NCBI GenBank assembly: GCA_965237415.1
Contig: CBDEFM010000002.1
Span: 3,872,001-3,936,000 of the forward strand
Origin: Alphaproteobacteria bacterium
Lineage (GTDB): Bacteria; Pseudomonadota; Alphaproteobacteria; UBA828
DNA: 64,000 nt
Reading direction: 5' to 3'
Of this stretch, positions 4,631 to 19,957 are shown piece by piece. The position numbers were made by a program, and so were the translations under genes. A model generated the notes under the pieces. The model made no database searches, was not told where the DNA came from, and was given only the letters and a program-made list of their open reading frames with translations. Each line of letters starts with the position of its first letter. The stretch's first letter is position 1.

Positions 4631-5419
4631 CTACCGGCCCGTGAACTTGGGGGCGCGCTTTTCCATGAACGCGGTGCGCCCCTCGGTGTAGTCGGCGCTG
4701 GTGAAGCAGGCCGTTACCAGCTCCTCGCAGAGGGCAGGGTCGACTCCCTCGGCGCCGCTGCGTGCGAGCTCGGCTATCATGCGCTTGCTCGCGCGCACGG
4801 AGAGCGGCGCGTTGGCGGCGATGCCGGTGCAGTAGCGCTCGATGGTCTCGTCCAGCGTGTCGTCGGGGACGGTCTGGTTGACGAGTCCGATGCGCTCGGC
4901 CTCCGAGGCGGAGAAGCGCCGCGCGGTGATGAGGATCTCCTTGGCGAAGGCGGGGCCCACGAGATCGGTCAGCAGCTTGAGCGAGCCGACGCGATAGCCG
5001 ACTCCGAGCCTCGCGGCCGGGATCGCGAAGGTCGCGCCAGTGCCGGCGATGCGCAGGTCGCAGGCGATGGCGAGGCCGAGGCCGCCCCCCATGCAATAGC
5101 CGCGGATCATGGCGATGGTCGGCCGGTCCGCATTACGGAGCCGCTGGGCGGCGCCTTCCGCGAGTTCGTCGTAGGCCGCGACCGCCTCCTCGCTCGCGCG
5201 CTCGGTCGCGAACTCGGAGATGTCCGCGCCCGAGACGAAGGCCTTGTCGCCGGCGCCCTTGAGCACGATCACGCGGATCGTGGGATCGGCTTCCAGCCGG
5301 TCGAGCGCCTCCGGCAGCGCGCGCCACATGGCGACGGAGAGCGCGTTGTGCTTCGCCGGGTTGTTGAAAGTGATCCAGCCGACGGCGCCGGCTGTCTCGA
5401 CAAGCAGTTGGTCAGTCAT
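4631..5419 (-). CDS. Enoyl-CoA hydratase family protein
   Basis: C-terminal part of the 705-aa track ORF, from MTDQLLVE: motifs AFVSGADISEF, GYCMGGG and IPAARLG. Confidence 0.9.
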   Translation of the reverse strand: MTDQLLVETAGAVGWITFNNPAKHNALSVAMWRALPEALDRLEADPTIRVIVLKGAGDKAFVSGADISEFATERASEEAVAAYDELAEGAAQRLRNADRPTIAMIRGYCMGGGLGLAIACDLRIAGTGATFAIPAARLGVGYRVGSLKLLTDLVGPAFAKEILITARRFSASEAERIGLVNQTVPDDTLDETIERYCTGIAANAPLSVRASKRMIAELARSGAEGVDPALCEELVTACFTSADYTEGRTAFMEKRAPKFTGR

Positions 5420-5467
5420 GGGGCATTCCTGAAAGGCAAGCAGGGGAGGGGGGGGGCGCCGGGCTGG

Positions 5468-6788
5468 GGTACAGACCGGATAGATAGGTAACAGAATGGA
5501 CCGGATAGATGGGTGACAGGTTATGGCAGGGCCAGGAGGTGGCCGATGCCGTGGAAGGAGACCTGTCGCATGGAGGAGAAGTTGGTTTTTGTCGCAGACT
5601 GTCTGCGTGGCGAGTTGCCGATGACAGCGCTTTGCGAGGACTACGGCATCAGCCGCAAGACGGGCTACAAATGGCTCGGTCGCTATCGCGAGCACGGCCC
5701 GGAGGGCCTGGTGGAGCGCTCTCGTGCGCCGCACCGTCATGGTCGGTCGATGGCGCCGGAGATGGCCGAAGCGATTGTTGCTCTGCGCAGGCAGCGTCCC
5801 CATTGGGGTCCGCGCAAGCTGCGCGCAGTGCTGATGGGAGAGCGCCCCGAGGCGGTGTGGCCTGCGGCCAGCACGATGGGCGATCTGCTGCGTGCGGAAG
5901 GGCTGGTGAGCGCCCGCCGCCGGCGTCGTCGGGTAGCTGCGCCTGGTCGGCCGTTCCGTGCCGTCACCGCACCCAACGATGTGTGGTGCATCGACTTCAA
6001 GGGTTGGTTCCGCACCCGCGACGGCGAACGCTGCGACCCGCTGACCGTCAGCGACGCTTACAGCCGTTTCCTTCTGGCCTGTGTCATCGTCCCGCCCCGG
6101 ACCGACACGGTCCGTGTGGCGGTCGAGCAGCTCTTCAAGCGCTACGGCCTGCCTCTGGCCATCCGCTCGGACAACGGGGCACCGTTCGCCGGAACGGGCG
6201 CGGGCGGACTGTCTCGTCTGTCGGTCGGCTGGATCAAGGCCGGCATCGCGTTGGAGCGCATCGAGCCGGGCCAGCCCCAGCAGAACGGACGGCACGAGCG
6301 CATGCATCGGACCTTGAAGGCCGAGACGGCCAAACCGCCGGCCGCGAGTGCGGGCCAGCAGCAGGTCCGCTTCGACCGCTTCCGCCAGGACTTCAACGAC
6401 AACCGTCCCCACGAGGCGCTTGGCCAGCAGCCGCCTGCGGCGTTCTACCGGCCCTCGCTGCGGCCTTACCCCGAACGCCTGGACGAGCCCTGGTACGATG
6501 CCTGGCACGCCATGCGCCGGGTGCGCACCGACGGGTCCATCAAGTGGGGCGGCGACCTGGTCTTCATCAGCGAGACGCTGAAGGGCGAACCCGTCGGCAT
6601 CGCCGAGACCGACAGCGGCGACTGGATCGTTCGCTTCGCCGACATCGACCTCGGCATCATCGATCGCCGGACGAAAAAACTTCATGGCTTCCGCGCGGCC
6701 CGGCCGGGCCGCGCGGAAGCCAAACAAACGACGAACACTGTTACCCATGTAACCGGTCCATAGCGTTACCTATGCTTCCGGTTGCACA
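5468..6788 (+). mobile_element. IS481-family insertion sequence
   Basis: Imperfect terminal inverted repeats of about 50 bp: left GGTACAGACCGGATAGATAGGTAACAGAATGGACCGGATAGATGGGTGACA; the right end finishes ...CCGGTTGCACA. Each end has two internal repeat units. Encloses a single transposase. No target duplication seen. Confidence 0.85.
5546..6763 (+). CDS. IS481-family DDE transposase
   Basis: Starts MPWKETC after AGGAGG; HTH region (GISRKTGYKW); rve core motifs WCIDFKG, SDNG and QQNGRHERMH. Confidence 0.92.
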   Translation: MPWKETCRMEEKLVFVADCLRGELPMTALCEDYGISRKTGYKWLGRYREHGPEGLVERSRAPHRHGRSMAPEMAEAIVALRRQRPHWGPRKLRAVLMGERPEAVWPAASTMGDLLRAEGLVSARRRRRRVAAPGRPFRAVTAPNDVWCIDFKGWFRTRDGERCDPLTVSDAYSRFLLACVIVPPRTDTVRVAVEQLFKRYGLPLAIRSDNGAPFAGTGAGGLSRLSVGWIKAGIALERIEPGQPQQNGRHERMHRTLKAETAKPPAASAGQQQVRFDRFRQDFNDNRPHEALGQQPPAAFYRPSLRPYPERLDEPWYDAWHAMRRVRTDGSIKWGGDLVFISETLKGEPVGIAETDSGDWIVRFADIDLGIIDRRTKKLHGFRAARPGRAEAKQTTNTVTHVTGP

Positions 6789-6790
6789 GT

Positions 6791-7984
6791 CTACACGATA
6801 CCCCGGCCTCGAAAATCCTCGATCTGGGCGGCGCCGTAGCCGAGCGCGCCCAGAATCTCTTCGGTGTGGGCGCCGAGCTCTGGCGTCGCCCCGTGTACCG
6901 TGAATGGCGTGCGGCTGAGCCGCGCCGCCTGGGAGACGATGTGCGTTTGCCCGAGGGTCGGGTGCTCCACGGGCTCCGCCATTCCCAGGTGTTGCACCTG
7001 CGGGTCGGCGAACATCTCGTCGATGGCGTAGATCGGCCCGCAGGGCACGCCCGCCTGGTTGAGTGCCTCGACCCATGCGGTGCTCGGCTTCGTCCGCGTG
7101 CGCTCGTTGATGATGGCGTTGAGCGCCGCCCGGTTCTCGGAGCGGCCCTCGCCAGTCGCAAACTGCGGGTCGGTGATCAGCTCCGGCATGCCGAGCGCCT
7201 CGCACAGGCGTTCATAGATGGCGCCGCCGGATGTCGCGATGTTGATGTGGCCGTCGGCGGTCTCGAACACGCCGGTCGGGATGCTCGTCGGATGATCGTT
7301 GCCGGCCTGGCCGGGTGCCTCACCTTCGAACAGGTAGCGGGCGGCCTGGAAGTCGAGCTGCGCGATCATCGCTTGCAACAGCGAGGACTGCACCCACTGC
7401 CCTTCGCCCGAGCGCTCGCGCTCCAGCAGCGCGACGAGGATGCCGATTGCCGTATAGAGCCCGGCGCTCAGGTCCGCGATCGGGATCCCGACGCGCATCG
7501 GCCCCCGGCCGGGCTCGCCGGTGATCGACATGAGCCCGCCCATGCCCTGGGCGATCTGATCGAAACCCGGCCGCGTTGCGTAGGGGCCGTCCTGACCGAA
7601 GCCGGAGAGGCTGGCATAGACGAGGCGGGGGTTGAGCGCGCTGAGCGTCTCGTAGTCGATGCCGAGGCGGTGCTTCACGTCGGGCCGGTAGTTCTCCACC
7701 ACCACGTCGGCGCCCTCGGCCAGGCGCTTGAAGATGGCGACGCCGTCGGGCTCCTTGAGGTTGAGGGTGAGGCTCCGCTTGTTGCGGTGCAGGTTCTGGA
7801 AGTCGGGGCCGTGCCGGGCCTTGATGGGGTCGCTCGCCGTCCCCGGCGTCCCCGGCGCCTCGATCTTGATGACGTCGGCACCCCAGTCGGCGAGTTGGCG
7901 CGCGGCAGTCGGCCCCGCCCGGTAGCGGGTGAGGTCGAGCACGGTGAAGCGCGCGAGCGCGCCGTCTGCCGGGGGATGTGTCAT
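6791..7984 (-). CDS. CaiB/BaiF (family III) CoA transferase
   Basis: Motifs VLDLT, AGP, GADVIKIE, RNKRS, ENYRP and GFDQIAQGMGG. Confidence 0.92.
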   Translation of the reverse strand: MTHPPADGALARFTVLDLTRYRAGPTAARQLADWGADVIKIEAPGTPGTASDPIKARHGPDFQNLHRNKRSLTLNLKEPDGVAIFKRLAEGADVVVENYRPDVKHRLGIDYETLSALNPRLVYASLSGFGQDGPYATRPGFDQIAQGMGGLMSITGEPGRGPMRVGIPIADLSAGLYTAIGILVALLERERSGEGQWVQSSLLQAMIAQLDFQAARYLFEGEAPGQAGNDHPTSIPTGVFETADGHINIATSGGAIYERLCEALGMPELITDPQFATGEGRSENRAALNAIINERTRTKPSTAWVEALNQAGVPCGPIYAIDEMFADPQVQHLGMAEPVEHPTLGQTHIVSQAARLSRTPFTVHGATPELGAHTEEILGALGYGAAQIEDFRGRGIV

Positions 7985-8019
7985 CGGGGCTGTTCCACTG
8001 CCGCTATTGTAGAGCGCGC

Positions 8020-8907
8020 TCACTCCTCCGAGAAATCTCGGACCGCGCTGTCGAATCGTCCGTAGCCGGCGTAGTCCACGATGTCATAGAGGTGCGCCCT
8101 GGTCATCATGCGCGGCACGAGGCCCGGCTGATCGTCGCTCTCGTCGAGGTCCCGCAGCCCGTCCTCCACGGCCTTCATGGCGAGCCGGAAGGTCGTGACC
8201 GGGTAGATCACCAGATTGTAGCCGAGCCCCGCCAGCGCGTTGCGCGAGAGCAGGGGAGACTTGCCGAACTCGGTCATGTTGGCCATGAGCGGCACGTCGA
8301 GCGCCGCGCGAAAGGCCTCGAACTCGCGCTCGTCCTGCAGCGCCTCGGGGAAGATCATGGCGGCGCCCGCGTCGACATAGGCCTTGGCCCGGTCGATGGC
8401 CTTGGCCAGGCCCTCGGGCGCGCGCGCATCGGTGCGGGCGATGAGCAGGAAGTCCGCGTCAATCCGGGCCTCAGCCGCGGCGCGCACGCGGCGCACCATC
8501 TCAGGCGTCGGCACCAGGGTCTTGCGCTCGAGGTGACCGCAGCGCTTAGGCGCCTCCTGATCCTCGATGTGGCAGCCGGCGAGGCCGGCTTCTTCCAGCA
8601 GGGCTATGGTGCGGGCGGCGTTGAGCGGTGCGCCGAAGCCGGTGTCGACATCGACGATGACGGGCAGCGTGCAGGCGCGTGCGATCGCCTGCGCGCGGGC
8701 GACGACCTCGCTCTGGGTCACCAGCCCGATGTCGGGCAGGCCGAGGTCGGCGGCGAGCGCCGCGCCGGAGACGTAGACGCCGTCGAAGCCCTGGCGCTCG
8801 ATGAGCTTCGCCACGATCGGCGCGAACGCGCCGGGGAAGCCCAGCAGGGCGCCGCTTGCGAGCGCTGCGCGGAGCGCCCGGCGGCGTTCAGGCGCGGGCG
8901 CGATCAT
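8020..8907 (-). CDS. prpB: 2-methylisocitrate lyase (ICL/PEP mutase family)
   Basis: Signature KRCGH, plus GLPDIG, DVDTGFG, IARTDA and ANMTEFGKS. Confidence 0.85.
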   Translation of the reverse strand: MIAPAPERRRALRAALASGALLGFPGAFAPIVAKLIERQGFDGVYVSGAALAADLGLPDIGLVTQSEVVARAQAIARACTLPVIVDVDTGFGAPLNAARTIALLEEAGLAGCHIEDQEAPKRCGHLERKTLVPTPEMVRRVRAAAEARIDADFLLIARTDARAPEGLAKAIDRAKAYVDAGAAMIFPEALQDEREFEAFRAALDVPLMANMTEFGKSPLLSRNALAGLGYNLVIYPVTTFRLAMKAVEDGLRDLDESDDQPGLVPRMMTRAHLYDIVDYAGYGRFDSAVRDFSEE

Positions 8908-9038
8908 GGGCGGCCTCCCGGCTTCCACGCCGGGGTGCGTTGGCGATGCATATGGTGGTATATGATGCGCCGGTCCGCCCCAGGGCGGGCAGGGCGCGGA
9001 CTCCCGCGCGCGGCGCCAGGGGGCAGAGGAGGAGATCG

Positions 9039-10142
9039 ATGAAGCTTGGCCTGTTCATGATGCCGATCCACAACCACAAGAGGGACTATCACACGACCCT
9101 CATGGAGGATATCGAGGCGATCGTCCATGCCGATAGCCTCGGCTTCAGCGAAGCCTGGGTCGGCGAGCACTACAGCTCCAAGTCGGAGCAGATCACCTCG
9201 CCCTTGCTCTTCCTCGCCCATCTGCTGCCGCAGACCAAGCAGATCGTCGCCGGCACCGGCGTGATCTGCCTGCCGCAGTATCACCCGGCGGTCACGGCCG
9301 GGCAGATCGCCATGTTCGACCACCTGGCGAAGGGCCGCTACATCGCGGGCCTCGGCCCCGGCGGGCTGCCGCCCGACTTCGAGGTCTTCGGCGTGATGGA
9401 CGCGGACCGCAACTCGATGATGATCGAGGCCATCGACATCATGATCGATATCTGGACCTCCGATCCGCCCTACGAATACAACGGCGAGCACTGGCAGATC
9501 TCCCTCAAGGACTGGGTCTACGAGGATATCGGGCTCGGCTATATGGCCAAGCCCTATCAGAAGCCCTATCCGCCGATCGCGATCTCGGCGATGAGCCCCT
9601 TCTCGGGCTCGATCAAGTTCGCGGGCTCGCGCGGCTATATCCCGATCTCGGCGAACTTCATCGGCACCTGGTCGGTCAAGTCCCACTGGCAGGTCTACGC
9701 CGAGGCGGCGGCCAAGGCGGGCCACGCGACCGACCCGGAGATCTGGCGCGTCGCGCGCAACATCCACGTGGACGAGACCGACGAGGCGGCCGAGGCCTTC
9801 GTCAAAAAGGGTGAGGACAGCACCGACTGGTACTTCAGCTACCTCTTCAGGATCTTCGAGCGCGCGGAGATGAAGGGGCCGTTCGTCGTCAACCAGGGCG
9901 ACGACCCGGCGGTGCTCACCCACGAGTCGATCCGCGACAACTACACGATCTACGGCAGTCCGAAGACGGTCGCCGAGAAGATCCTGGCGCTCAGAGACGA
10001 GATCGGGCACTTCGGCACGCTGATGCTGACCGCGCAGGACTGGACCGACAAGGAGCGGATGAAGCGCTCCATGTTGCTGCTGGCCGAAGAGGTCATGCCC
10101 AAGGTGAACGCCGCCATCGGCGCGCGGGCGGCGGCCGAGTAG
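9039..10142 (+). CDS. LLM-class (luciferase-like) flavin-dependent oxidoreductase
   Basis: Starts MKLGLFMMP after GAGGAG; motifs AWVGEH and FDHLAKGR. Confidence 0.9.
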   Translation: MKLGLFMMPIHNHKRDYHTTLMEDIEAIVHADSLGFSEAWVGEHYSSKSEQITSPLLFLAHLLPQTKQIVAGTGVICLPQYHPAVTAGQIAMFDHLAKGRYIAGLGPGGLPPDFEVFGVMDADRNSMMIEAIDIMIDIWTSDPPYEYNGEHWQISLKDWVYEDIGLGYMAKPYQKPYPPIAISAMSPFSGSIKFAGSRGYIPISANFIGTWSVKSHWQVYAEAAAKAGHATDPEIWRVARNIHVDETDEAAEAFVKKGEDSTDWYFSYLFRIFERAEMKGPFVVNQGDDPAVLTHESIRDNYTIYGSPKTVAEKILALRDEIGHFGTLMLTAQDWTDKERMKRSMLLLAEEVMPKVNAAIGARAAAE

Positions 10143-10176
10143 GGCCGCCACGCCCGAACGCCGGGGAGGGCGGGCG

Positions 10177-10905
10177 ACGAGCGACTATGCGCTGATTACC
10201 GGCGGCGCTCGCGGGATCGGGCGGGCGACGGCGGCGCGGCTCCGTGCCGGCGGCTGTCGTGTCGTGGTCTTCGACCGCGTTGAGCCGGAAGACCCGGTGG
10301 ACGAATTCGTGGCCGTCGACCTCGCCGATACCGCGGCCACCGCAGAGGCGCTGGAGCGGGTGCTCGCGGACCGCGCCATCACGCGGCTCGTCAACAATGT
10401 CGGCGCCGTGAGGCCGGCGCTGCTCGAGGACGCGACCCTCGACGACTTCGACTATCTGATGGCGCTCAACGTGCGCTCGGCCATCCAGTGCACCAAGGCG
10501 CTGGCACCGGGGATGCGGGCCGCAGGCTTCGGGCGGATCGTGAACGTCTCCAGCCGCTCGGTGCGCGGCAAGGAACTCCGCACCAACTACGCCGCGACCA
10601 AGGCGGCGCTGATCGGGCTCACGCGCACCTGGGCGCTGGAGCTCGGCGGCGACGGCATCACGGTCAACTGCATCTGCCCCGGCCCGACGGCGACGGAGCT
10701 TTACGTCGAGGCAAACCCGCCGGATTCGCCCCGCACCAAGGCCGCGCTCGCCGCGATCCCTGTCGGCCGGATCGGCACGCCCGAGGACATGGCCCACGCC
10801 ATCGCTTTCTTCCTCGACCGCGAGAGCGGCTTCATCAGCGGGCAGGCGCTGATGGTCTGCGGCGGCTCAAGCCTCGGCAACCGCGAGAGCTACGCGCCGA
10901 GTTAG
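10177..10905 (+). CDS. SDR family oxidoreductase (apparent ACG start)
   Basis: The in-frame Rossmann motif ITGGARGIG lies upstream of the track start at 10264; also NNVG and YAATK. The only start-like codon behind GGAGG is ACG at 10177. Confidence 0.82.
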   Translation, partial: TSDYALITGGARGIGRATAARLRAGGCRVVVFDRVEPEDPVDEFVAVDLADTAATAEALERVLADRAITRLVNNVGAVRPALLEDATLDDFDYLMALNVRSAIQCTKALAPGMRAAGFGRIVNVSSRSVRGKELRTNYAATKAALIGLTRTWALELGGDGITVNCICPGPTATELYVEANPPDSPRTKAALAAIPVGRIGTPEDMAHAIAFFLDRESGFISGQALMVCGGSSLGNRESYAPS

Positions 10906-11001
10906 GTCTTTAGCCCGAGTCCGTCTTTGACGGACTCGCGACAAGCCGCGACCGCGGCCCGACGCCAAATTTCCGCAGCGTTCCAAGCCTACGGGAGCAG
11001 A

Positions 11002-11439
11002 TCAGGCTGCCTCGCCGACGGTGACGGTCACGCGCTTCCCCAGCCGGCGGAGGGCGCGGTCGATCGTTGCAGCCTTGGTGCTATGCTCCGGATTCAACAT
11101 ACGCCGCACCTCGCTCTCGGCGACGTCGAGATCGCGAGCAAGACGGCGTTGCGAAATCCCGGCTTGGCGCCAAGCCTCGTAAAGGGCCGCCTTCAGCGCG
11201 ATCTGCACCGGCGGGACGACCAGGGGCCTCCCCTTACCCGCGCGCGACGGCTCGGGCAGGTTCTCGCCCTCCCGAATCGTGGTTGCGATCAGCTCGCGAA
11301 GCAAATCCTTGGCTTCGAGGAGTGCCTCGTCGCGAGTGGCGCCGTCCGTCGCACCCCATCCGAAATCCGGGAACGCGACGATATACCGGCCGTCCTTGTC
11401 GCGTTCGATTTCGGCAGGATAGTTGTAGGTGTCAGGCAT
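11002..11439 (-). CDS. hicB: HicB family antitoxin with C-terminal HTH
   Basis: YPAEIERD..YIVAFPDFG..ATDGATRDEAL plus an XRE-like HTH (ISQRRLARDL). Confidence 0.88.
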   Translation of the reverse strand: MPDTYNYPAEIERDKDGRYIVAFPDFGWGATDGATRDEALLEAKDLLRELIATTIREGENLPEPSRAGKGRPLVVPPVQIALKAALYEAWRQAGISQRRLARDLDVAESEVRRMLNPEHSTKAATIDRALRRLGKRVTVTVGEAA

Positions 11440-11477
11440 GCGTTCGGTCTCCGGGGACACTTGCGTCGTTCCGTTAC

Positions 11478-11690
11478 CTAGAAATCGTCCCTGTCGATCC
11501 CAAGGTCGGTGAGCATCTTGGCGAGCAGTCCCTTGCCAATTTCCTTTTTCCGGTCCTTGACGGTCGTTCTGCGCTCGCCCGCATAGAGCGTTCCATGCGA
11601 ACCGGCGCCTTCGGACGCCACGAAGCGCACCTCCAGATTCCGGCTCCGCGCCCACTTGCGGACCCTCGCGTTGAACTGCCGCCCGTTCAT
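11478..11690 (-). CDS. hicA: HicA family toxin (mRNA interferase)
   Basis: 70 aa, basic, with GSH motif and KEIGKGLLAKMLTDLGI; lies directly upstream of hicB. Confidence 0.82.
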   Translation of the reverse strand: MNGRQFNARVRKWARSRNLEVRFVASEGAGSHGTLYAGERRTTVKDRKKEIGKGLLAKMLTDLGIDRDDF

Positions 11691-11806
11691 GCCGCCACAG
11701 TGTGAGCCGGCGCCCGCGTCGATCAAGGATACGTGCGCACATTTTTGCGCGCAACAGTCCGTTCCCGACGACTACTCGAGCCAAATTCGCTAAAGCGCTT
11801 TCTTTC

Positions 11807-13150: not shown

Positions 13151-13252
13151 CGTTCCTATACTCGCATTGGTACTTTGTCTCTACTCTGGCTCAGTCCTTC
13201 CAACTTCCATCTACACAACATGAGACATTTTCATAGCTTTCTTTTTGACCCT

Positions 13253-13810
13253 TCATGCGCATTTCCCTCGATCACTAGACGCAGCTTCGGCGAGCATAAC
13301 ATCAAGCTCAACGATAGCCTCCATCGCTGCATCTTTGGCTATATGTGGCTTTAGCTTCGCCAACATCAAAGCTCTGTTCTCAGCCGTTGTGTTTCCAGAA
13401 GTTTTCTGAGAAACAAATAGAGCCGTAGCCAAACGTTCGAGGTCTGCGACGTCTCTATTGCCTAGCCGCTCCGCTACGAAGTTTATATCACCTTCGTACT
13501 TGGATAAGGTTTTGGAGTAGACTGATTGTATGTATTTACCTCGCTCTGTCGAAGCAATCTTGGGACCGTAGGGATACTGAGGTTCGAGAGTGAGTATTCC
13601 GTCCGCTCGCAAACCGGTCAATTCGTCCCTAAGATCGAACGAAAAGGGACCATGCTTATATAATACGAACTCACACTTGAGCGGCACACTCAGGAGGTAC
13701 TGCAAGAAGTAAGCGGCCTTTTGCACATGTGTTTCGCCACACCAGCTGCCTGCCGACCGAAGTTGCTCAACCAGACGCGCAATTAGAGCAGCTCTCCTAA
13801 CTCGATCCAT
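13253..13810 (-). CDS. Hypothetical protein, YwgA / DarG C-terminal / Panacea-like
   Basis: Motifs VQKAAYFLQ, YKHGPFSFDL and LERLATALFV; overlaps the HD gene stop; preceded by GCGGGA; AT-richer than flanks. Confidence 0.65.
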   Translation of the reverse strand: MDRVRRAALIARLVEQLRSAGSWCGETHVQKAAYFLQYLLSVPLKCEFVLYKHGPFSFDLRDELTGLRADGILTLEPQYPYGPKIASTERGKYIQSVYSKTLSKYEGDINFVAERLGNRDVADLERLATALFVSQKTSGNTTAENRALMLAKLKPHIAKDAAMEAIVELDVMLAEAASSDRGKCA

Positions 13811-15125
13811 GTCCCGCCAGCTCCTCTTCGTTTGGCAATTTCACAATGTCAGTTCGATTTTTTTCGAGCCAACTCTTCACCTCATCGAATACGGAACGCT
13901 CTGCATACACATTATCGATTGCTACGACTGGTACGTTCTTTAAAGTCTCGGATTTCGCAAGTGATGAAATAACTTCTCCATCGCGCAACTTGACTGGGAA
14001 ATCCGGCGCACCACCGCGCTGAGAATATCTATCTACCCGAAAATCCTTCGCGTCATACTTATCGGCTAGAGCACCAAATACATAAGCTCCCGCTTCCGGA
14101 TTTACGTGCAGGTCACCGGGGTTCCGTTCATACAGCAACTTGTAGTGCTCGCGACCCACGATGCGTTGCGCATGCAATCTCCCGGAAGCGTTTGCAGAGC
14201 GGGATGATTCCATTATGGCGGAAGTAACTTCATTATCGGTCAACCTCAGGTGCTCCTCCAGATCCGTAGAGAATTTTCCGCCATCCAACCACTCTTCGAG
14301 AAAATTCATAAGGTGAATATCGTAGATTCTTCTAACCGGATGAAAGTATACTTGAGAGTACATAAAATAGCGCGCGAGCATCAGCGCCTCGGCTGAATGA
14401 AGGCCGCCTTCTTCGACACCAAGCGCAGGTTCTCCGGACGGACGGGCTGGAAGAATGCGGAGCGTATCGATGAGGCGATAATGGTCGAATCGGCCATAGC
14501 CCACGCCGGTGTGGTGAGAGTCGCGCAGAAGATAGTCCATACGGTCGACGCCAAATGCGTCTCCAACGATTATCTCTGATAGAATAGTTTCCCAGTAGGT
14601 AAAATTAAGATCGTTTGCCTTCTTCGGACCTAAGGCCAGCTTTACAACGTCCTCGGTTCGCAGTGGGGGTGTCATATCGTTCCAAATGTTTTGCATCTCG
14701 TCGCAACAAATAAGTTGTCTTGTAAGTCTCTCGTGATCCCAACCCTCAGGGAGCAAACGCTGCTCCGCTGCATGGGAAAACGGCAAGTGTCCTATATCGT
14801 GACAGAGCGCTGCCATGCGCAGAGCCAAGCGCCAATAGTTCAAAGGGGTTTCATGGCCGATCGGTTCCAAACGAGCTCGAATTTCGTCGGACACATTGTC
14901 GACATGGGTGACGATGTCGAAGACTCGCCCCGCTAGTTCCATTACTCCTAAGGAGTGTTCAAATCGCTTATGCGTTGCACCGGGATAGACAAGATAGGTC
15001 AAGGCAAGTTGGTGAATGTGACGTAATCTCTGAAATGGTCTTGAATTAAGTACCGCCCGTTCGTAGCTGTCCATCCGCACAAAGACGTGGATAGGATCGC
15101 GGACTTCATGGATGTATTTTGGCAT
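13797..15125 (-). CDS. HD-domain phosphohydrolase, SAMHD1/YwfO-like putative dNTP triphosphohydrolase
   Basis: Motifs DPIH, FQRLRHIHQL, YPGATHKRFEHSLGV, HDIGHLPFSH, DRMDYLLRD and RYFMYSQVYFH. Confidence 0.9.
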   Translation of the reverse strand: MPKYIHEVRDPIHVFVRMDSYERAVLNSRPFQRLRHIHQLALTYLVYPGATHKRFEHSLGVMELAGRVFDIVTHVDNVSDEIRARLEPIGHETPLNYWRLALRMAALCHDIGHLPFSHAAEQRLLPEGWDHERLTRQLICCDEMQNIWNDMTPPLRTEDVVKLALGPKKANDLNFTYWETILSEIIVGDAFGVDRMDYLLRDSHHTGVGYGRFDHYRLIDTLRILPARPSGEPALGVEEGGLHSAEALMLARYFMYSQVYFHPVRRIYDIHLMNFLEEWLDGGKFSTDLEEHLRLTDNEVTSAIMESSRSANASGRLHAQRIVGREHYKLLYERNPGDLHVNPEAGAYVFGALADKYDAKDFRVDRYSQRGGAPDFPVKLRDGEVISSLAKSETLKNVPVVAIDNVYAERSVFDEVKSWLEKNRTDIVKLPNEEELAGHGSS

Positions 15126-15260
15126 GATCAAATATCAGATCGAGAATAGGATAGCTCTTCATGTAGTGTATGCCCGAAGATCACACTGGAAGGAGGGGCA
15201 GTAACCAGTGGATTGCGGCGGACTGCGCAAAGCAGTGTCTCCAACATGAGCTCCTGCCAC

Positions 15261-15289
15261 AGTATGTTCTCTCATTGTTCTGTTTGCAA
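15261..15289 (-). promoter_or_regulatory. Sigma70-type promoter overlapped by an alphaproteobacterial LexA (SOS) box
   Basis: Minus strand TTGCAA-N17-CATACT; GAAC-AATGAGA-GAAC (GTTC-N7-GTTC on +, 15266-15280) spans the spacer and touches the -10. Confidence 0.72.
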
Positions 15290-15439
15290 GCCCCTAGATC
15301 TTGAGGTTTATGTAACAGTAGGCTCAAGATATAGCAATAGTGAGTCGGAAATTCGGGTAAGCATGCCTGCCGAGAGCTGCATGCTGTCTTCATCACCTTC
15401 TTACTTTGGACGTGCCGCGGAGTGATGTCCCGAGCGGCA

Positions 15440-18152: not shown

Positions 18153-18404
18153 TCAGCTCCGGGCCTGGACCATGGTGCAGGCGATGACCTCCTCGCCGAG
18201 CGCCTTGCAGGCCTCCAGGCGGTGCAGCCCCTCCACGAGCACGTAGCGCGAGCCGTCCTCGCGCACCAGGATCGGAACCTTCAGCCCGTCCTCCATGATG
18301 CTCTCGGCGAGCGCATCGACCGTCGCCTGCTTGAGCGTCCGGCGGCGCTTGGCCGGCACGTAGATGTCGGCGATCGCGAGGTCCTTGTTCTCCAGTAGCG
18401 GCGT
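18153..18404 (-). CDS. Small ParB N-terminal/sulfiredoxin-like domain protein (apparent ACG start)
   Basis: IYVPAKRRRTL..VDALAESI..PILVR..LVEGLHRLEA; GGAGG sits 5 nt before an ACG at 18404. Confidence 0.75.
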   Translation of the reverse strand, partial: TPLLENKDLAIADIYVPAKRRRTLKQATVDALAESIMEDGLKVPILVREDGSRYVLVEGLHRLEACKALGEEVIACTMVQARS

Positions 18405-18544
18405 CGTGTCCTCCCTGCTCCGGCGGCGCGGGCCCAGCGTGACTCTCTCAAAGCCACCCTTTCCACGCAATGGACGGGTGACGGCCGGCGCGGCATGATG
18501 GCGGGCAGGGACAGAGGGGCCGGCGACGCCCCAGGGAGGCGAGG

Positions 18545-19957
18545 ATGAGTGCAACCGTTATTCGGAACGGGCGGATCGTGACCGCGGTGGACGACTACAA
18601 GGCCGACATCCTGATAGAGGACGGGCGGGTGCGCATGATCGGCACCGATCTCCCTGTCGGTGAGGGGGTTGCCGAGCACGATGCGTCGGGGCTGCTCGTG
18701 CTGCCCGGCGGCGTCGATGTGCACACGCACCTCGACTGGGACTTCGGGCCTACGCGCACGGCGGACACCTTCTACACCGGCTCCCAAGCGGGGGCCTTCG
18801 GCGGCACCACCACGATCGTGGACTTCGCTGCCCAGGTGAAGGGGACGAGCCCGCTCGAAGGCCTTGCTGACTGGCACGAGCGCGCCTCGATCGCCGCCGT
18901 CGATGTCGGTGCGCACATGATCATGACCGAGGTGAACGACCAGGCGCTCATCGACATGAAGAGCCTGATCCACGACGAGGGCGTCACCACCTTCAAGCTC
19001 TTCACCGCCTATCCCGACCTGCTGATGATCGACGACGGGTCGATCTTCAAGACGATGCGTCAGGTCGGCGCGAACGGCGGGATGGTGCAGATCCACGCCG
19101 AGAACGGCCACGTCATCGACGTGCTGGTGCAGGAGGCGCTCGCCGCCGGCAATACGAGCCCCAAGTGGCACATGCTGACCCGGCCCTCCCTGATGGAGGG
19201 CGAGGCGACCCACCGGGTCATCCGCATCGCCGAGCTTGCCGAGGCGCCGGTCTATATCGTGCACCTCTCGGCGAGCGAGGCGCTCGACGCGGTGACGGAA
19301 GCGCGGGACCGCGGGCTCCCCGTCCATGCCGAGACCTGCCCGCACTATCTCTTCCTCACCGAAGAGGAGTACGACCGGCCGGGCTTCGAGGCAGCGAAGT
19401 TCGTGATGACGCCGCCGCTCAGGAGCGCGGCGCATCAGCATGCGCTCTGGCGCGGGCTCAAGACCGACGACCTCCAGGTCATCGCCACCGATCACTGCCC
19501 GTTCTGCTTCAGCGAGAATGTGCTGGGGCTCAGGCTCTCCAAGGAGCTCGGCCGGGACGACTTCAGCAAGATCCCCAACGGCGCGCCGGGCCTCGAGACG
19601 CGCATGCCGCTGGTCTATGACGGCGGCGTGCGGCGCAACGGCATGTCGCTCAACCGCTATGTGGAGCTGACGGCGACGGCGCCGGCAAAACTCTTTGGCC
19701 TGTTCCCGCGCAAGGGCACGATCGCGGTGGGCTCCGACGCCGATATCGTGCTGTTCGACCCGGACGAGACCTGGACCATCCGCGCCGCCGAGCATCACAG
19801 CCGGGTCGAGTATTCGATGTTCGAGGGCCGCGAGGTGACGGGCCGGGTGAGCAAGGTGTACCTGCGCGGCGAGCTCATCGTCGACGGCCGGGAATGGCTC
19901 GGGCGCGAGGGCGGCGGCCAGTTCATCAAGCGCGGCCAGGCGGGGAAGCAGAAGTAG
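18545..19957 (+). CDS. hydA: Dihydropyrimidinase / D-hydantoinase
   Basis: Motifs PGGVDVHTH, GGTTTIVDF, FKLF, HAENG, ETCPHYL, TDHCPF and KIPNG. Confidence 0.92.
   Translation: MSATVIRNGRIVTAVDDYKADILIEDGRVRMIGTDLPVGEGVAEHDASGLLVLPGGVDVHTHLDWDFGPTRTADTFYTGSQAGAFGGTTTIVDFAAQVKGTSPLEGLADWHERASIAAVDVGAHMIMTEVNDQALIDMKSLIHDEGVTTFKLFTAYPDLLMIDDGSIFKTMRQVGANGGMVQIHAENGHVIDVLVQEALAAGNTSPKWHMLTRPSLMEGEATHRVIRIAELAEAPVYIVHLSASEALDAVTEARDRGLPVHAETCPHYLFLTEEEYDRPGFEAAKFVMTPPLRSAAHQHALWRGLKTDDLQVIATDHCPFCFSENVLGLRLSKELGRDDFSKIPNGAPGLETRMPLVYDGGVRRNGMSLNRYVELTATAPAKLFGLFPRKGTIAVGSDADIVLFDPDETWTIRAAEHHSRVEYSMFEGREVTGRVSKVYLRGELIVDGREWLGREGGGQFIKRGQAGKQK

Follow-up and report, generated by a model that had tools for sequence, protein, structure and literature searches.

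An AT-rich islet with two overlapping genes

We analyzed a 64-kb window of an alphaproteobacterial genome (64,000 nucleotides of contig CBDEFM010000002.1; all positions below are positions in this window) and, within it, a short AT-rich islet with two overlapping genes on the minus strand. The upstream gene, here called the HD gene, encodes a predicted phosphohydrolase of the SAMHD1 type, and the downstream gene, here called the partner gene, encodes a small protein resembling the C-terminal domain of DarG. The original prediction, made from the sequence, had pointed to this pair as a foreign, two-gene candidate defense system. Our analysis confirmed the observation as a whole and found its homology assignments largely right. 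The features of the islet are as follows.

13797..15125, minus strand: HD gene, predicted HD phosphohydrolase of the SAMHD1/COG1078 type (442 residues from the ATG at 15125)
13253..13810, minus strand: partner gene, stand-alone protein of 185 residues, like the C-terminal domain of DarG by profile and fold
13797..13810, minus strand: 14 nucleotides in which the HD gene ends and the partner gene already begins, from the open reading frame (ORF) coordinates
15126..15439, no strand: AT-rich upstream spacer, from the HD gene to the GFA-domain gene stop (G+C 0.475-0.575)
13151..13252, no strand: AT-rich downstream spacer from the partner stop to the amidohydrolase start, the downstream edge of the islet by composition

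The islet extends over ~2289 bp (about 2.3 kb), from the start of an amidohydrolase gene (13150) to the stop of a gene with a GFA domain (15440). The G+C content was 0.46-0.52 over 13200-15400 and approximately 0.70 on either side, and that of the pair was 0.498 compared to 0.675 in the remaining window. The islet is foreign in composition, as the original prediction had it. The two neighboring genes and the next genes out are on the same strand as the pair, in a minus-strand run of metabolic genes that includes an M20 peptidase and luciferase-like monooxygenases.

There was no mobility gene inside the islet. Between the pair and its two neighboring genes, the only complete ORFs of at least 60 residues were two of 70-71 residues, on opposite strands of the upstream spacer (15181-15425), and these may be due to chance. 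This spacer is presumed to be the promoter region of the islet. A simple scan of the minus strand upstream of the HD gene found no promoter-like site, and the spacer is not common to the other loci, as blastn similarity to 80 related loci ends at 15133. A simple scan for a terminator-like site on the minus strand of the downstream spacer was also negative. The 14-nucleotide overlap suggests that translation of the two genes may be coupled. We considered an attachment site or flanking repeats as borders of the islet and dropped the idea, given that direct and inverted repeats at its edges were short and at chance level, that there is no tRNA gene anywhere in the 64-kb window, and that a mobility gene is lacking.

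The HD gene product resembles SAMHD1

Translation of the HD gene could begin at the ATG at 15125 or at an in-frame TTG at 15131, which would give 444 residues. We chose the ATG because the sequence that follows (MPKY...) fits the consensus of the homologues (MPKN...), and 15125 is also where the original prediction placed the end of the pair; residue numbers below follow the 444-residue form. The protein matched the Pfam families HD (2.5e-7, 31.4 bits; cut-off 22) and HD_assoc_2 (1.7e-14, 54.3 bits; cut-off 23.1). Its best matches among PDB sequences were the Aquifex protein 2hek (1.8e-52), EF1143, a deoxynucleoside triphosphate triphosphohydrolase (dNTPase) of Enterococcus faecalis (2o6i; 1.8e-32), mammalian SAMHD1 (~1e-22), and 9mr6, described as a fungal SAMHD1 (PMC12042053). 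The closest solved relative, 2hek, was deposited as a 'hypothetical protein'.

Matches to Dgt-type dGTPases in the PDB reached ~0.1 only (0.12 for E. coli Dgt). Models of anti-phage dGTPases scored far under their cut-offs (NF041026, 13.3 bits vs. 400; TIGR01353, 26.1 vs. 152), and the PADLOC dGTPase profile (1.4e-6) covered residues 27-126 only. Because the dGTPase models were under threshold and the Dgt matches so weak, whereas the matches to SAMHD1-like proteins were strong, gene 1 is assigned by sequence comparison to the SAMHD1-type (COG1078/YdhJ) HD enzymes and not to the Dgt type. The enzyme most likely hydrolyzes deoxynucleoside triphosphates (dNTPs) to nucleosides and triphosphate.

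In an alignment with SAMHD1, residues R56, H59, H111-D112, H115, H120, H133, D196, Y200, D204 and H264 of the HD protein pair with conserved positions. Of these, H59, H111-D112, H115, H120, H133 and D196 correspond to the SAMHD1 metal ligands and catalytic histidines. Q34 and R37 fall on the QRLR segment and H264 on the conserved histidine past the YxxH motif. These three align with SAMHD1 Q142, R145 and H376, and N29 stands in for D137; the roles of these four SAMHD1 residues are described in PMC7854603. All of the residues that pair with conserved SAMHD1 positions, Q34 and R37 included, were invariant in 35 homologues with 65-82% identity, in an alignment with a mean column identity of 73%. 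The full H..HD..D motif set of the SAMHD1/YwfO type, read earlier from the letters alone, is present. Homologues of the HD protein number in the thousands, and one (P0121) is 97% identical.

The HD protein has the same predicted HD fold, catalytic residues and QRLR segment (part of the guanine-binding allosteric site) as SAMHD1, EF1143, Aquifex 2HEK and the Bacteroides protein 2Q14. The structures 3IRH, 2Q14 and 2HEK are grouped with SAMHD1 under COG1078/YdhJ in PMC7854603. The HD protein differs from the SAMHD1-like dNTPases in having a conserved extra C-terminal region (~340-444), modeled here as holding the partner, and in being encoded with a dedicated partner (at 74 of 80 loci, see below). 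It has no SAM domain, and its activity is a prediction. An AlphaFold2 monomer model made with 35 close homologues was poor (predicted local distance difference test, pLDDT, 64.7), so nothing structural about the C-terminal region stands on that model by itself.

The partner resembles the C-terminal domain of DarG

The motifs that had been recognized in the second gene as QKxxYFLQ, YxHGP[FY]S and LExLAT are present in the partner as VQKAAYFLQ (residues 29-37), YKHGPFS (51-57) and LERLATA (124-130), on invariant or nearly invariant columns. Invariant in an alignment of 52 sequences were W23, G25, T27, H28, Q30, K31, G54, P55, F58, G82, L124, E125 and K154. There was no relevant Pfam family for the partner or for any of these 52 family members. 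In particular, PF13274 (Panacea, DUF4065) matched 0 of the 52 at E ≤ 1.

Two profiles of DarG did match: that of PADLOC at 6.3e-9 (profile positions 165-299 of 329) and that of NCBIfam (NF048014) at 3e-8 (33.3 bits vs. a cut-off of 250; positions 170-318 of 338). In both cases the whole length of the partner aligned with the C-terminal third of DarG. Its score is far under the equivalog cut-off because the macrodomain is absent. An AlphaFold2 model from the 52-row alignment had a pLDDT of 96.4; its N-terminal half resembles a winged helix, and its C-terminal half is helical. When this model was searched against the PDB with Foldseek, only chains D and B of 7yk3, the M. tuberculosis DarTG complex, matched at E ≤ 0.001 (7yk3_D and 7yk3_B; template-modeling score 0.67, probability 1.0). 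The matched chains have ~187 residues, and judging by this length we take them to be the C-terminal domain of DarG. The remaining matches were weak likenesses to MarR/PadR-type winged-helix proteins. A PDB sequence search with the partner found only a chance-level match (E 0.15), so the kinship with DarG is visible by profile and fold only.

By these two criteria the partner is a predicted homologue of the C-terminal domain of DarG, a domain reported to bind DarT and inhibit it (PMC13621843, citing Deep et al. 2023). DUF4065 proteins are described as homologous to that domain in the same source (2026). The earlier suggestion of kinship with YwgA, Panacea/SocA-type antitoxins and the DarG C-terminal domain thus stood in part. 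The DarG relationship was found by profile and fold, and the name 'uncharacterized protein YwgA', a COG name, is the JGI label of several of the listed homologues. Membership in the Pfam Panacea family was rejected. Because PF13274 matches none of the 52 sequences, the link to Panacea holds at the superfamily level only. As a lead, PF13274 occurs in 13% of the members of an Atlas cluster of proteins that look like the partner (score 0.90).

We also rejected the identification of the partner as DarG itself: the 185-residue protein has no macrodomain, and the upstream gene, in the window and at 74 of 80 loci, encodes an HD enzyme and not DarT. The arrangement is like DarTG in that a protein resembling the DarT-binding domain of DarG, by profile and fold, is encoded beside an enzyme of DNA metabolism. 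It differs in that the neighbor is an HD hydrolase and not an ADP-ribosyltransferase such as DarT.

The pair is widespread

We searched for relatives in one genome per species (185,579 species genomes). There were 559 candidate stretches, of which 527 encode a relative of the partner, and locus counts given here refer to the best 80 of the 527. These 80 loci (numbered L) are from Alpha- and Gammaproteobacteria, Desulfobacterota, Acidobacteriota, Planctomycetota, Latescibacterota, Bacteroidota, Bacillota, Spirochaetia, Thermomicrobia and methanogenic or anaerobic methanotrophic (ANME) archaea. Homologues of the partner number 3093 at E ≤ 0.001 (90% clusters), in 1275 clusters at 50% identity, and nearly all of the 150 best listed are stand-alone proteins of ~180 residues.

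An HD homologue with 45-75% identity was directly upstream on the same strand at 74 of the 80 loci. Homologues of both proteins number in the thousands, and the original observation of the two genes and their motifs goes beyond chance. The HD ORF was intact, covering at least 400 residues, at 54 of the 74 loci, and was broken or cut by contig ends at the others. The ends of the tblastn matches of the two proteins were -10 to +90 nucleotides apart at most of the 74 loci, and exactly -4 nucleotides apart at 11. The four long homologues were all rare, predicted fusions of HD protein and partner (P0391, P0392, P0393 and P0394), one of them (P0393, 613 residues) nearly full-length. Each is a single sequence and may be a real fusion or a frameshift artefact of overlapping genes. 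The pair is a conserved module. Clustering of the flanking ORFs found no third gene common to most loci; the biggest cluster, the helicase of the Hma system (see below), was present at 8 of 80.

Pairwise identities of the HD proteins and of the partners correlated with each other (r 0.73 over 54 rows; 0 of 999 permutations as high in a Mantel test). This is what co-inherited neighbors give, and by itself it is no evidence of interaction.

Signs of horizontal transfer of the pair

Several observations are signs of horizontal transfer. Its G+C content is ~0.46-0.56 whatever the host. We compared it with the flanks wherever these reached 3 kb or more (73 loci); it was more than 5 points under them at 53 loci and more than 5 points over at none. 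Blastn similarity between the window and the 80 related loci did not go beyond the two genes (from 15133 to 13341), and flanking genes differ from locus to locus. The nearest relative of the pair in the window, at L002 (75% identity), has another neighborhood, with a penicillin amidase and an IS1595 transposase. The original prediction had named vertical conservation at this locus across the clade as an outcome that would speak against it; among the genomes seen, the pair is not conserved in this way.

A quick tree of the HD proteins (LG+G4, 54 rows, leaving out 27 loci without both ORFs intact) has phyla intermixed. Pseudomonadota require 8 changes on this tree, and its starred branches force at least 2. 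One starred clade places Acidithiobacillus within Syntrophobacteraceae, and a second is made up of four archaeal rows together with one from Bacteroidota and one from Acidobacteriota. We conclude that the islet is a horizontally acquired two-gene module.

At two loci from metagenome-assembled genomes (MAGs) of the Rhodospirillales type (L042 and L048), the pair is just downstream of an AFG1-like ATPase gene. The two HD proteins group in a starred clade, and that lineage seems to have kept the pair by vertical descent.

A modeled complex of the HD protein and its partner

Complex modeling of the two proteins gave a score of 0.89 in all three runs, and the best of three controls gave 0.00. Of 157 solved complexes, 116 scored at least as high, as did 2 of 215 mismatched pairs; these counts apply only roughly here, because the pair was modeled with our own alignments. 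The runs agreed in at least 98% of contacts, and the pLDDT of the partner was at least 88. No structure of a SAMHD1-like enzyme bound to a partner of this kind is known to us, which makes it unlikely that the model recalls a known structure. The modeling supports binding between the two proteins.

On the side of the partner, the modeled interface comprises residues 47-53 (the YKHGP hairpin), 58-83, 90-101, 120-125, 153 and 156. On the side of the HD protein it comprises residues 169-182, 230-234, 341-346, 370-377, 386-404 and 432-436. Many of the interface columns are invariant in the alignments of the partner (52 sequences) and the HD protein (35 sequences). Because the HD side is mostly the C-terminal region specific to this family, at a distance from the metal ligands, the model suggests control of assembly or allostery and not plugging of the active site. 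It would be compatible with inhibition or activation alike.

A possible role in defense

Nucleotide depletion is a proven antiviral strategy, used by SAMHD1 in animals and by Dgt-type dGTPases, dCTP deaminases and Clover in bacteria. From the genomic context and the complex model, we consider the chance to be about even that the pair is a toxin-antitoxin-like defense module based on a dNTPase, which is the best supported of the explanations considered here. For this module we infer the substrate, the toxicity, the direction of regulation, the trigger and the defense itself.

With its invariant motifs, the partner would bind a conserved part of the HD enzyme near the C terminus (~341-436), and would either restrain the dNTPase or gate its oligomerization and allosteric activation. 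The enzyme would be freed by a cue from the phage or once the partner is lost. The dNTP pools would then drop, and replication of viral DNA would stall.

There is a precedent that we count in favor of this proposal. The Clover defense system is described as a dGTPase, CloA, with a nucleotidyltransferase, CloB, that restrains it (PMC12265719). As with Clover and other anti-phage dGTPases, the proposed logic is that an HD dNTPase depletes nucleotides and is restrained by a protein encoded with it. The enzymes there are of the Dgt type and the one here of the SAMHD1 type. The partner here has no match to Pol-beta-type nucleotidyltransferases and is predicted to have the fold of the DarG C-terminal domain instead.

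Neighborhoods and the Hma operons

On each side of the pair we took at most two ORFs of 100 residues or longer that did not overlap, and determined their Pfam families (273 ORFs at 78 loci, two short contigs having none). At 36 of the 78 loci, at least one of these four nearest ORFs belonged to a restriction-modification, defense, toxin-antitoxin or mobile-element family, by our own classing of families. The families were DUF1156, DUF499, SNF2 plus NOV_C helicases, Type ISP, HSDR_N, Methylase_S, BsoBI, Uma2, HNH, KAP NTPase, AAA_15/21, HEPN_Toprim_N, NurA, PIN, FitA, BrnA, ParE, DUF4258, transposases, integrases and recombinases. PADLOC gave matches for 21 of 30 picked neighbors, including GajB (2.9e-223), pAgo (4.7e-150), a type IIG restriction-modification protein (1e-274), NsnB and several PDC candidates.

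The most telling pattern of context was a gene order found with Hma, a DUF499-centered system related to BREX (bacteriophage exclusion) and experimentally supported as a defense system (PMC12839542). At L010 (5147-16367) the HD gene and the partner gene stand between the HmaA helicase and the HmaB methylase, which is followed by the HmaC ATPase (PADLOC: HmaA 2e-186, HmaB 6e-114, HmaC 4.6e-114). The same order was present at L009 and L016, and in part at L007, L012, L049 and L052. Overall, the helicase recurred upstream at 8 loci and a DUF1156 methylase downstream at 7. In the Hma literature that we found, this arrangement is not described, and neither PADLOC nor the main text of PMC12839542 lists the pair as an Hma component.

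These loci raise an alternative, that the pair is an accessory effector cassette for Hma and restriction-modification systems and does not act alone. In this case the winged-helix partner or the allosteric site of the HD enzyme would read a nucleic-acid or nucleotide cue from the host system. The pair overlaps or abuts hmaA and hmaB, and the Hma-linked loci are scattered over separate parts of the HD tree (L016/L012/L009/L010, L049, L061, L052, L007). Other neighbors are parts of type IIG, type III and type I restriction-modification systems. Auxiliary 'backup' effectors around BREX-related systems are described in PMC12839542 (Nucleic Acids Research, 2026), and allosteric sites of SAMHD1 can bind oligonucleotides according to PMC7854603. 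However, Hma parts were beside the pair at only ~10 of 80 loci, and the window and most other loci have no such neighbor. The main text of PMC12839542 also contains no HD, phosphohydrolase or dNTP term. We regard this alternative, including the proposed sensing of a cue, as distinctly unlikely.

Housekeeping flanks and a counterpart in Bacilli

A number of observations weigh against a role in defense. Many loci have plain housekeeping flanks, and those of the window itself are metabolic. At L020 (an alphaproteobacterial MAG, 5090-11640), the pair is inserted between gidA-gidB and parB, genes of a classic origin-proximal cluster. L032 is flanked by tRNA synthetase genes and L047 by dprA-topA. 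Defense, toxin-antitoxin or mobile-element families were found at 14 of 33 loci among the nearest ORFs and at 10 of 33 among ORFs 6-10 kb away, in a comparison within loci that used the outermost ORFs (127) of the 33 loci with full flanks and has no genome-wide baseline. Because near and far ORFs did not separate, we do not claim enrichment by proximity. Among plasmid records, a homologue of the partner was present in one only (archaeal, 28% identity), and all HD matches were under 60% identity, so that none was close. A phage collection contained no homologue of the partner and no close homologues. The scores of the anti-phage dGTPase models and the quality of the HD monomer model, both given above, count on the same side. 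Full-text literature searches found no published activity, toxicity or phage experiments on this pair, and we found no experimental report linking the SAMHD1-type branch to prokaryotic immunity.

There is also a distant version of the pair in Bacilli. In Priestia megaterium, an HD protein (~36% identity over 60% of the query) is followed by a hypothetical protein of 169 residues. The two genes are located between pta/lipoate-ligase genes and genes for a tautomerase (ywhB-like), a site-2 protease and a YwhD-like protein. This is presumably the position, on the B. subtilis map, of ywfO-ywgA, the neighbors invoked in the original prediction. In hhalign, 152 columns of the family profile aligned with the 169-residue protein (probability 61%, E 7.9e-5), and its BLASTP value was E 0.001. 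In Listeria, the HD gene is in the same neighborhood and the small gene is missing. Because the Priestia pair and the Listeria HD gene are among housekeeping genes, SAMHD1-like enzymes can be housekeeping enzymes. In Bacilli, this distant form of the pair seems to belong to the chromosomal core, which keeps a housekeeping role alive as an explanation.

According to that explanation, the HD enzyme would reduce dNTP pools, as during stationary phase or following DNA damage, with the partner as its regulatory subunit; YwfO-YwgA in Bacilli may be a parallel. The pair would be mobile and have no role against phage. The small Priestia protein that fits the family profile, the Listeria gene, the metabolic flanks, the lack of phage and near lack of plasmid homologues, and the near and far counts that did not separate all favor it. 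Against it, a set of only 527 stretches among 185,579 species genomes is a poor fit to a core function. The G+C content of the pair is systematically under that of the host, phyla are mixed on the HD tree, and pairs from several HD lineages are inserted in Hma operons. Furthermore, the Bacillus-type pair is only distant kin, by the identity of its HD protein and the BLASTP value of its small protein. Overall, we consider housekeeping control of dNTP pools unlikely.

Partner-only loci and related toxin-antitoxin modules

Six of the 80 loci have the partner and no HD gene upstream. At L033 (a Methanoperedens MAG, 6754-10543), the partner follows a short prokaryotic Argonaute (pAgo; PADLOC pAgo_I, 4.7e-150) and a P-loop protein of 395 residues with no family match. 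Here the partner may serve another effector. At L077 it is beside a BsoBI restriction-modification pair and ParE, at L037 and L060 beside BrnA-like genes, and at L072 and L073 beside unrelated genes.

Pairs of an HD protein and a DUF4065 protein have been listed among toxin-antitoxin candidates. For five Firmicutes genomes, Dataset S1 of Kurata et al. 2022 gives an 'HD domain-containing protein' (CDD YdhJ) with a DUF4065 protein encoded after it (PMC8832971). These pairs form the putative toxin cluster pT33/T34, are marked 'notest' and are absent from the main text of that paper. The islet is like the PanAT systems in combining a small antitoxin-like protein of the DarG-C-terminal/DUF4065 kind with an enzyme, which varies among those systems, in its toxin-then-antitoxin order and in its overlapping genes. 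A G-P motif is also conserved (HGPF in the partner, the 'GPV motif' of PMC8832971). The islet differs from PanAT in that none of the 52 partner family members matches PF13274, and the T34 proteins are likened to it by description only.

The pair might then be a plain, self-stabilizing addiction module, or its HD enzyme might act on another substrate, such as a nucleic acid or a signaling nucleotide. The gene order with overlap, the listing of HD (YdhJ)-DUF4065 pairs as cluster T34, the partner-only loci beside other candidate effectors (L033, L077, L037 and L060) and the deposition of 2hek as a 'hypothetical protein' are consistent with this. On the other hand, the full catalytic set of SAMHD1 and part of its allosteric set are conserved, a mean column identity of 73% across phyla is in our judgment unusual for addiction toxins, and the pair is nearly absent from plasmids. 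We consider an addiction module or another substrate distinctly unlikely as well.

A tentative joint reading and its implications

The defense proposal and the Hma operons could be combined. The pair would be a self-contained, mobile antiviral cassette, a prokaryotic counterpart of restriction by SAMHD1. Its partner would clamp the C-terminal lobe of the enzyme and release it upon infection, and the cassette would have been recruited repeatedly as a second-line effector in Hma and BREX-related systems. This combination is possible, although we hold it only tentatively and think it doubtful as a whole.

Nucleotide-depleting defense and antitoxin modules of the DarG-C-terminal/Panacea type are kinds of system that are already known, and the pair described here, which is real and widespread, is a candidate variant of them with an enzyme of the SAMHD1 type. 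If the cassette reading is true, dNTP depletion of the SAMHD1 type would be linked to immunity across bacteria, archaea and animals. If the pair defends against phage, SAMHD1 would gain a functional counterpart in prokaryotes, and HD dNTPases would join the effectors under DarG-C-terminal/Panacea-like control. The pair would also be a tractable case of how cells silence a dangerous dNTPase. Its insertion between hmaA and hmaB offers a route to study how methylation-based systems recruit auxiliary effectors.

Other features of the window

Approximately 1.4 kb from the islet, on the minus strand at 11002-11726, there is a HicB-like ORF with an overlapping HicA-like ORF of 82 residues. They coincide with a second, smaller dip in G+C (0.61-0.62). 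Their Pfam scores (24.4 and 23.0 bits) are under the gathering cut-off of 27, and the match of the HicB-like ORF, which is long, starts at residue 149. On the other side of the islet, an ORF of 133 residues (18153-18554, minus strand) has a ParB N-terminal-like domain (1.5e-6). It is flanked by genes for a luciferase-like monooxygenase and an amidohydrolase, an odd site for a ParB-like or sulfiredoxin-like protein.

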